Shown piece after piece: positions 21,886 to 22,890 of a DNA stretch of 57,856 nt. Every line of letters begins with the position of its first letter. The first letter of the stretch is position 1. The DNA is from Candidatus Nomurabacteria bacterium (GTDB lineage Bacteria > Patescibacteriota > Minisyncoccia > Phycocordibacterales > UBA9973). The DNA lies in NCBI GenBank assembly GCA_025361085.1, contig JANYAX010000018.1:1-57856 (forward strand), given 5' to 3'. The notes beneath the pieces are model-generated. The model was not told the origin of the DNA, made no database searches, and saw only the letters and a program-made list of their open reading frames with translations. The translations under genes were made by a program, and so were the position numbers.

Positions 21886-22890
21886 TTATGCACAAAATTG
21901 TTTTAAACCCTTCAAAGCAACCTTGGAATATTGAAGCTTTTTGAGAGCGCGAACCTTTATTTGTTTGACTCTTTCTTTTGTCAGATTCAAATCAAAAGCT
22001 ATATCTTCCAAACATTGCTCTTGCTGACCGAGAACACCATAGCATCGACACAAAATATATGCAGATCTCACTCTGGCAATAATACTTTTCACTTCTCTTT
22101 CTTCCAGATTGAAATCTGACATAATCTGCTTAATGTTCTGTTTCTTGACGGGATTTATTCCGAAGTATCTAAAGAAAATTTTGTAACAATCACCGTTGCA
22201 ACAAAAGACAGTATCGAGCACGGTCTTCAAATTAACAACCAATGATTCTTTTCTCAACAAATTAGATTCGGGACTTAAAGATTCTTTGTCTTCAATAACA
22301 GATAGTAAATTCCCGCTGTCTTCTTCGTCAGAAAATTTCTTGTCGAGAGAAAGTGCCCTTTCTCCCATTCCTTCAATAGAAGAAATCTCATCTTCATCTT
22401 TCTCTAATAAATCGGCTAACTCCCAATTATCTGGGTAACGACTTTTTTCCTGAAAAAATTTTTCTTTTTGACGCCCAACTTGGTTAATTAGAGAAATCTT
22501 ATTTAAGGGAAGTCTAACTATTCTGGCCTGTTGTGCCAAAGCTTGCAAAATAGATTGGCGAATCCACCAAACGGCATAGGAAATGAATTTGAACCCTCTG
22601 GTTTCGTCAAATCTTTTAGCCGCCGTGATAAGCCCAATATTCCCTTCATTTATGAGATCAGGCAAACTAAGGCCTTGGTTCTGGTATTGTTTCGCAACAG
22701 ATACAACAAAACGTAGGTTTGCTTGTATCATCTTTCCGAGAGCCCGTTCGTCACCAGCTTTTATGCGCACTGCTAGTTCAACTTCTTTCTCAGGGGCGAT
22801 AAGCACACTACATTCTTTTATCTCTTGAAGATACGTGTCTAAAGAATTATCACGACTTGTGATCTTCTTGGTTATTTTTAATTGTCTCAT
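21886..22890 (-). CDS. RpoD/SigA-family sigma factor of Bacteroidota type, no region 1.1, duplicated region 4
   Basis: [79 protein letters not shown].QI. Confidence 0.92.
   Translation of the reverse strand: [334 protein letters not shown]

Follow-up and report, generated by a model that had tools for sequence, protein, structure and literature searches.

A second, Bacteroidota-type sigma factor beside the resident RpoD in a genus of Paceibacteria-class bacteria

The 57,856-nucleotide contig JANYAX010000018.1 of a Candidatus Nomurabacteria bacterium (assembly GCA_025361085.1), here called the window, carries two genes for sigma factors of the primary type: the resident rpoD and a second gene, S2 (positions 21886 to 22890 including the stop codon, reverse strand), with a product of 334 amino acids. 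The open reading frame (ORF), Pfam domains, closest relatives and phylogenetic position of S2 support its assignment to SigA, the primary sigma factor of Bacteroidota, and it is no paralog of the RpoD found in bacteria belonging to the candidate phyla radiation (CPR). Of the 93 genomes examined from the genus, 31 carry genes of the same type. With moderate confidence we interpret S2 as a xenolog of Bacteroidota SigA which was captured repeatedly and is kept as an accessory sigma factor of the CPR cell.

Results

The reading frame of S2 starts with ATG, and its translation contains all of the protein motifs quoted in the original prediction, which had been made from the sequence alone. Sigma-70 regions 1.2, 2, 3 and 4 each score above the Pfam cut-off. 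Region 1.2 (PF00140, residues 16-48, positions 22747 to 22845; E 2e-5, 24.9 bits, cut-off 22), region 2 (PF04542, residues 54-123, positions 22522 to 22731), a diverged region 3 (PF04539, residues 134-209, positions 22264 to 22491) and a canonical region 4 with the 4.2 helix-turn-helix (PF04545, residues 279-320, positions 21931 to 22056) follow each other on the reverse strand; the last family gives 30.1 bits with the whole protein and 32.2 bits with the C-terminal piece alone. Region 1.1 (PF03979) gave no match, region 1.2 beginning already at residue 16, and S2 can be aligned with Bacteroidota SigA from its first residue onwards, its start being of the MRQLKIT type. The description of S2 as a Bacteroidota-type sigma factor without region 1.1, with the motif RIVRLPLNK and situated beside an ordinary RpoD, is thus one on which the ORF, Pfam and the tree agree. 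Two other identities were considered for it. As an RpoS, S2 reached 230 bits with the best NCBIfam model, rpoS_proteo (TIGR02394, cut-off 378.7), and 217.3 bits with NF004207 (cut-off 394); as an RpoD it reached 204.7 and 177.1 bits (TIGR02393 RpoD_Cterm, cut-off 354). Because these scores fall under the cut-offs, S2 is an equivalog of neither. A sequence search of the PDB gave no solved structure of a Bacteroidota-type SigA, the best match having 166 bits.

Conservation is very uneven along the protein. Compared with the Bacteroidota consensus, S2 is 88% identical in region 2 and 71% in region 1.2, while identity is 42-44% in region 3 and 27% in the C-terminal tail. The CPR copies of this type behave alike on average, with 86% identity in region 2 and 42-54% in regions 3 to 4. 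In regions 1.2 and 2, the SigA loci of Bacteroidota themselves show 86-97% identity to this consensus. The GC content of the S2 gene is 37.2% against 34.9% for its locus.

Relatives were sought in a set of 5.8 billion proteins, among 1.84 billion cluster representatives scanned exhaustively with HMMER and in contigs of one genome per species. The best 119 matches in the first set are 285-296 amino acids long (one has 366) and 43-53% identical to S2 over 87-100% of the query; all 17 named ones among them carry the names of Bacteroidota, the rest being unnamed or called 'primary sigma factor'. The closest full-length relative in the HMMER scan is 57% identical, and over all searches the best full-length relatives are Bacteroidota SigA proteins with 45-57% identity. 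Among the best 80 loci in the one-genome-per-species contigs, 75 are from Bacteroidota, one is from Ignavibacteriota and four are odd or unlabelled. Two European Nucleotide Archive assembly proteins, P0002 and P0003, were the closest matches of all and were excluded as internally duplicated and apparently misassembled. With 375 and 446 amino acids they are Bacteroidota SigA with big internal repeats of regions 2-3 and 2-4, probably artefacts that inflate similarity lists.

The original prediction could be examined further by phylogeny. A maximum-likelihood tree (79 rows, 287 columns, LG+C20 with posterior mean site frequencies, quick search) was built from 37 CPR copies, five CPR RpoDs, 28 of the 80 labelled reference loci and nine unlabelled cluster representatives; the partial copies L017 and L026, as well as G083:C43, G057:C4 and G044:C22, for which no locus was retrieved, are not in the trees. 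S2 and the 36 other CPR copies nest inside a clade of 71 rows made up with Bacteroidota and Ignavibacteriota SigA, and this clade is separated from the five CPR RpoDs by a branch of length 1.1 with a Shimodaira-Hasegawa-like approximate likelihood ratio support of 100. S2 is therefore placed with Bacteroidota and Ignavibacteriota, not with the RpoDs of CPR. End branches of the captured sigma factors range from 0.1 to 1.7, compared with 0.002-0.15 in Bacteroidota rows and 0.03-0.07 in the RpoDs of the genus.

The window is one whole contig of a genome of 771,131 bases in 38 contigs with a completeness of 100. Close relatives of its RpoD (83-97% identity) are named Candidatus Paceibacterota, Nomurabacteria or Pacebacteria in their sources, therefore the genome is that of a Paceibacteria-class CPR bacterium, and the CPR-like character ascribed to it earlier is confirmed. 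This RpoD (reverse strand, 33083 to 34438 with a TTG start or to 34402 with an ATG start) adjoins dnaG and has the motif IRIPVHM; region 1.1 is present in its protein cluster, and on the RpoD_Cterm model it scores 338.5 bits, slightly under the cut-off. It shares only 38% identity with S2, over residues 14-228. As such a canonical RpoD with region 1.1 is present, and as 62 of the genus's 93 genomes gave no match of the S2 type at E<=1e-46, S2 is not the primary sigma factor of its organism.

Far from being a one-off gene, as it had been taken to be, S2 has counterparts at syntenic sites in other members of the genus. Carriers were counted at a threshold of E<=1e-46, with the S2 type defined by a match from residue 1 in ORFs of roughly 285-310 amino acids. 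In the genus 31/93 genomes carry it (28/64 of the high-quality ones), two of them with two copies, compared with 7/400 other genomes of the order, in six other genera. In a phylum-wide sample it is clearly present in one of 400 genomes (G637, two copies) and ambiguous in G757; 35/401 pass the threshold there, and the rest look like ordinary RpoDs as judged by match range (about 11-14 to 210-227) and ORF length (366-593 amino acids) alone. Nine loci share the order YchF-S2-pterin dehydratase-Sua5 and nine others EF-G-S2-FKBP isomerase, while four further loci partly share other neighbours. Such synteny across species indicates vertical inheritance after insertion. Both main sites are empty in the window genome, where ychF and sua5 lie about 260 bp apart (C9) and fusA and fkbp about 300 bp apart (C32). 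Two pairs of copies were sufficiently diverged for ratios of nonsynonymous to synonymous substitutions (dN/dS), which were 0.044 (L019/L020, dS 1.93) and 0.13 (L006/L027, dS 1.86); one pair with nearly no changes gave 0.52, and six of the nine pairs were saturated and gave no dS. Judged by these substitution patterns, the sister copies in the genus are under purifying selection.

CPR copies are as distant from one another as from Bacteroidota. Ranked by BLAST score, 26 of 37 CPR copies have a Bacteroidota SigA as their top partner (45-88% identity) and 11 have another CPR copy, nearly always from their own subgroup. An approximately unbiased (AU) test with the 37 CPR copies rejects a single CPR clade (log-likelihood difference 102.8, p 5.5e-5). 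The rejection holds when the copy L014 is left out (difference 82.7, p 0.0024), in a test devised after the first tree was seen and with long branches involved. L014 (G042:C8, sigma gene at 1501-2361) shares 88% of its protein and 75.6% of its DNA letters with the SigA gene of one Marinifilaceae genome (Ancylomarina), has a GC content of 41.9% in a locus of 35.4% and has neighbours common to other CPR loci; it looks like a very recent capture. CPR copies occupy at least four distinct chromosomal sites. The AU rejection, L014 and the four or more insertion sites together support that a Bacteroidota SigA-type gene was captured more than once in the genus. Bacteroidota are the donor side by parsimony, because there the gene is a universal, slow-evolving primary sigma factor, whereas in CPR it is patchy. 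Of the earlier statement that S2 was captured from a Bacteroidota host and diverged, the Bacteroidota origin and the divergence stand, but the donor as host is a matter of inference from the repeated capture. A further observation concerns L038 (G242:C31), on a short contig, where a gene about 700 bases 5' of the sigma gene resembles, with 53-59% identity, the one found ahead of sigA in Flavobacteriales loci; this block is either a larger transfer or a contaminant contig in the bin.

The insertion site of S2 is a spot of variable content. The segment between trmH and tRNA-Lys measures 1,893 bp (21105 to 22997) and holds S2 and an ORFan. On its left border stands a SpoU/TrmH-type methylase gene (Pfam; 20622 to 21104, reverse strand), part of a ruvA-mutM-trmH block, and on its right border the tRNA-Lys (ttt) gene (ARAGORN; 22998 to 23071, forward strand), divergent from the sigma gene. 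The trmH product is 43-84% identical in 37 of 40 relatives (E<=1e-30). The order ruvA-mutM-trmH is kept in relatives with tRNA-Lys(ttt) next, at a variable distance from trmH: 74-120 bp in two relatives (G024 and G011), 1.9 kb in the window and, filled with unrelated sequence, about 0.6-1.3 kb in G004 and G008. This variability in the genus can be seen in loci L226 (G011), L232 (G024), L221 and L224. A tblastx comparison of the S2 flanks with 80 Bacteroidota loci gave no match that would represent a remnant of donor DNA.

The 57.9-kb contig carries S2 along with ruvA, mutM, trmH, rpsB, tsf, dnaG and rpoD. Contigs from four sediment-metagenome runs, each assembled on its own, match positions 20600 to about 23033 with 0 differences and reach about 1.9 kb further left, and in each of the four runs a 4.3-kb contig links the sigma gene with CPR genes of the ruvA side. 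The RuvA encoded on the Logan contig has counterparts with 54-86% identity in 11 of 12 genus members sampled, with no match in one 83%-complete genome. All four runs belong to a single study, possibly the one from which the assembly was made, so as independent evidence the bridged left junction counts for little. On the right, the contigs of all four runs end inside the tRNA-Lys gene with an overlap of about 18 bases and none bridges the junction; depths on its two sides are 11.9/9.97, 15.9/17 and 12.5/10.9. The check for a chimera at the two junctions thus turned out well on the left, which is bridged, but not on the right. Elsewhere in the genus the S2 type lies deep in large contigs, for example in the two contigs named C1 of G004 and G024, at depths of 89 kb and 159 kb respectively.

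S2 is about 42-45 residues longer than every aligned relative, and the surplus (residues ~237-272, positions 22075 to 22182, reverse strand) consists of a second, degenerate region 4 module in tandem with the first. Because of this insert the protein has 334 amino acids, compared with about 285-291 in Bacteroidota. Residues ~237-272 align with residues 278-314 with a score of 49, as against 21.7±4.0 for shuffled sequences and equalled in 0 of 2000 shuffles. The AlphaFold2 model of S2 (mean predicted local distance difference test score 78.9, with 72-92 for residues 251-320) is helical there, with helices at 234-243, 250-260 and 264-284, and predicts two consecutive helix-turn-helix units. The first repeat alone matched no sigma family in Pfam, giving only a non-significant match to Mor (E 0.09). 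In the alignment, the C-terminal unit differs from the LTRERVRQIK of Bacteroidota at the matching position.

Promoter-like elements were counted on the sense strand of 452 upstream regions of the genome and compared with shuffles. TGnTATAAT occurs 76 times as against 5.1±2.2, and TTGACn-N16-18-TAnnnT 37 times as against 4.4±2.2. By these counts the genome itself uses promoters of the extended -10 type, and the strong enrichment of both elements is in accordance with the TTGACA/TATAAT promoters named in the original prediction. Upstream of S2 itself, 26 nt 5' of the ATG, stands an extended -10-like element, TGGTATAAA (22917 to 22925, reverse strand), of the class enriched in the genome, which is likely an RpoD-type promoter of S2. 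TGnTAnnWT is found 5' of the sigma gene in 18 of 39 CPR copies (shuffled 7.5±2.3) and TAnnTTTG in six (shuffled 4.0±2.0). The H and E of sigma-70 region 3.0 read the TG of the extended -10 element. At the corresponding positions the resident RpoD has IPVHMVE as against LPLNKIS in S2, so with both residues replaced S2 should, as far as its sequence tells, read the main promoter class of the genome poorly. Bacteroidota SigA reads a -7 element TAnnTTTG and a -33 element TTTG, as stated in PMC9723704, which cites Vingadassalom 2005 and Bayley 2000.

Discussion

The most economical account of these results would begin with the gain of a Bacteroidota housekeeping sigma gene by a Paceibacteria-class CPR lineage through horizontal transfer. 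Transcribed probably from a promoter of CPR type, S2 would bind the cell's own core RNA polymerase by means of its nearly unchanged region 2 and could guide it to a few promoters for which the resident RpoD is a poor reader. The window copy would be an old and strongly diverged one, inserted together with the ORFan beside tRNA-Lys and later subject to the degenerate tandem duplication of region 4. As for the claim of a host-manipulation system, the synteny, the purifying selection and the CPR-type promoters speak instead for a domesticated accessory sigma factor, with no secretion signal, delivery system or further connection to a host RNA polymerase found for S2.

Several results weigh against such an accessory sigma factor. 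TAnnTTTG is found 49 times in the 452 upstream regions as against 39.3±6.9 in shuffles, which is no clear excess, and the full TTTG-N17-23-TAnnTTTG four times as against 1.7±1.2. In the 93 genomes of the genus the density of TTTG-N18-22-TAnnTTTG is 6.76 per 100 kb in carriers and 7.24 in non-carriers (Mann-Whitney p 0.12), with ratios to a reversed control of 1.73 and 1.76, and around the 39 CPR loci the two-box density, 8.7 per 100 kb, is not raised. A Bacteroidota-type regulon is thus not detectable by counting motifs, and a small one would escape these counts. Bacteroides SigA and the Escherichia coli core polymerase reportedly do not work together, and because of this incompatibility the function of S2 with a foreign core enzyme is not to be presumed. 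The position of S2 within the SigA clade shifts between two tree builds, its end branch of 1.19 is among the longest, and identity to the Bacteroidota consensus drops to 35% in region 4.1 and 41% in region 4.2. Finally, selection on the window copy is not measurable, because its nearest relative has 57% identity; with its sometime sister L015, too, dS is saturated.

The long branch and the diverged regions 4.1, 4.2 and tail would be expected if the window copy were a decaying or neofunctionalised remnant, no normal sigma factor any more, in a family which itself works in CPR. The unique insert of about 42-45 amino acids fits such a remnant as well, as do the lack, in two protein collections of very large size, of any relative closer than 57% identity, the ORFan neighbour and the emptiness of both syntenic sites of the relatives. 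However, the frame has stayed open over 334 codons in a gene of 37% GC, regions 2 and 1.2 have kept 88% and 71% identity to the consensus, the C-terminal region 4 is above the Pfam cut-off within a helical model, and the promoter-like TGGTATAAA lies upstream. We therefore regard a remnant as rather unlikely.

It is also conceivable that the sigma factor belongs to a mobile element, be it a phage or an integrative or conjugative element, and serves the element instead of the cell. Phage contigs of IMG/VR with portal and primase/helicase genes do carry diverged sigma factors of the S2 type (25 ORFs in 18 of 80 viral loci reach at least 170 bits), often in tandem. The window copy sits in a variable segment adjoining a tRNA gene, the distribution in CPR is patchy, and a gene for a type IV secretion system (T4SS) coupling protein is a neighbour in two of the 39 CPR loci. 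Against this, a scan of 18 flanking ORFs (14-33 kb), with rpsB, tsf and genes for a P-type ATPase and a glycosyltransferase among them, gave no integrase, transposase or phage family, and the insert is only 1.9 kb long. Housekeeping genes flank the copies of the two large synteny groups, and all CPR copies are closer to cellular SigA of Bacteroidota than to the phage copies, save L007, L034 and L045, which tie or differ by one or two points of identity. A service to a mobile element is, accordingly, highly improbable in our view. The tandem sigma pairs are seen in five IMG/VR contigs (L132, L139, L140 and L142 at about 4000-4900 and 5000-5870; L136 at 4974-5858 and 5972-6844). The two T4SS coupling-protein genes, of the VirD4/TraG type, adjoin the sigma gene in L003 (G016, 2479-3777) and L032 (G100, 13-1287), both among the four loci with partly shared neighbours mentioned above.

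Still less probable is the idea of the original prediction that the protein is directed at the host, being delivered to or acting on the RNA polymerase of a Bacteroidota host, or letting the symbiont transcribe imported host DNA from promoters of host type. This idea draws on region 2, which binds the core and reads the -10 element and is kept nearly exactly Bacteroidota-like, on the repeated capture from Bacteroidota and on phages, presumably of Bacteroidota hosts, which captured the same gene; the resident promoters are of a different type, and one of the four full promoter matches lies 5' of a Fic gene. On the other hand, the N-terminus of S2 is that of its cytoplasmic parent protein and no delivery system is linked to S2 in the window: comparison of the N-terminus and the scan of the 18 flanking ORFs gave no secretion signal and no secretion gene, with no dedicated signal-peptide prediction made. 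A phage sigma factor acts on the host polymerase inside the host, therefore a separate cell would need a route of delivery. We know of no precedent for a sigma factor injected from cell to cell. Carriers have no excess of Bacteroidota-type promoters, and four matches against 1.7±1.2 expected is a weak signal. The match near the Fic gene (TTTG-N21-TAATTTTG, window 24740-24802) ends 30 nt before that gene (24803-26149), 2 kb from the sigma gene; with four found and 1.7 expected it may be due to chance. In a wider form, which we consider very unlikely, the genus would have taken the SigA of its presumed hosts repeatedly and would retain it under selection in order to handle host-type genetic information, either by transcribing newly imported host DNA from that DNA's native TAnnTTTG promoters or by reprogramming the host RNA polymerase after transfer by cell contact, as is presumed of the phages with the same gene. 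If true, the gene would tell, as a molecular marker, to which phylum the hosts of an uncultured lineage belong, and its product would be the first sigma factor to be employed from one cell to another.

An assembly or binning artefact, i.e. a Bacteroidota fragment misjoined to a CPR contig, could be suspected from the break of all four runs' contigs in tRNA-Lys and from other copies being possible bin contaminants, such as L038, but it has a negligible probability in view of the left junction bridged without differences, the similar depth on both sides of the right one, the mere 45-57% identity of S2 to any Bacteroidota SigA and the same gene type deep in other contigs of the genus.

The accessory sigma factor that we favour can be compared with three known systems. 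S2 is like Bacteroidota SigA in the lack of region 1.1, the MRQLKIT start, the conserved region 2, the RIVRLPLN motif and its place in the clade. It differs in residing, as a non-primary sigma factor, in a CPR genome with an RpoD of its own, in having 334 amino acids with a duplicated region 4 as compared with 285-291, in its regions 3-4 with 35-44% identity to the consensus and in being surrounded by TGnTATAAT/TTGACA promoters with TAnnTTTG not in excess. With group 2 sigma factors such as RpoS it shares the position of a second RpoD-like factor with regions 1.2-4 beside the housekeeping one; unlike them it is a xenolog of the primary sigma factor of another phylum and not a paralog of the resident RpoD. 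Phage sigma-70-type factors are likewise cellular sigma factors captured by a dependent entity, and the IMG/VR copies show equally long divergence, but the carrier of S2 is a cellular genome with no phage genes nearby.

Primary-type sigma factors are informational genes and seldom assumed to move between phyla. In the present genus, one phylum's housekeeping sigma factor has been taken up several times by genome-reduced symbionts and kept beside RpoD under purifying selection. The repeated capture fits the sharing of genes between Bacteroidota and Patescibacteria and suggests a physical association with Bacteroidota. In PMC12455944, Bacteroidota are over-represented among the partners with which groundwater Patescibacteria share genes, one example being the transfer of a gyrB into a Paceibacteria genome, and the word 'sigma' does not occur in that paper's main text. 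We found no published description of a Bacteroidota-type sigma factor in CPR, supplementary tables, which might list one, not being covered. Hosts of Paceibacteria are almost all unknown, and S2 offers a testable clue that this genus lives with Bacteroidota. The family may also be seen as a natural experiment in the adaptation of a sigma factor to a foreign core polymerase, with region 2 frozen and regions 3 and 4 evolving fast. That phages have taken up the same gene, often as two in tandem, suggests that dependent entities acquire Bacteroidota SigA recurrently.

Additional observations

The ORFan next to S2 (21204 to 21848, forward strand) would encode 214 amino acids and is convergent with the sigma gene. 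It belongs to no Pfam family, and its sole match among the 5.8 billion proteins is itself; its coding status is uncertain. The putative product has P-x-EEPIVE-like repeats towards the C-terminus and a basic tail, and the frame is overlapped by an antisense ORF of 143 amino acids.

The genome has four genes of the sigma-70 family, namely S2, RpoD and two of the size of extracytoplasmic function sigma factors. The latter lie 4 kb apart on contig C34 of the same genome (G000; 15672-16130 and 20066-20542). The resident RpoD (window 34100-34438) and its relatives L009 and L011-L013 have a long lysine-rich, low-complexity N-terminal extension ahead of region 1.1.

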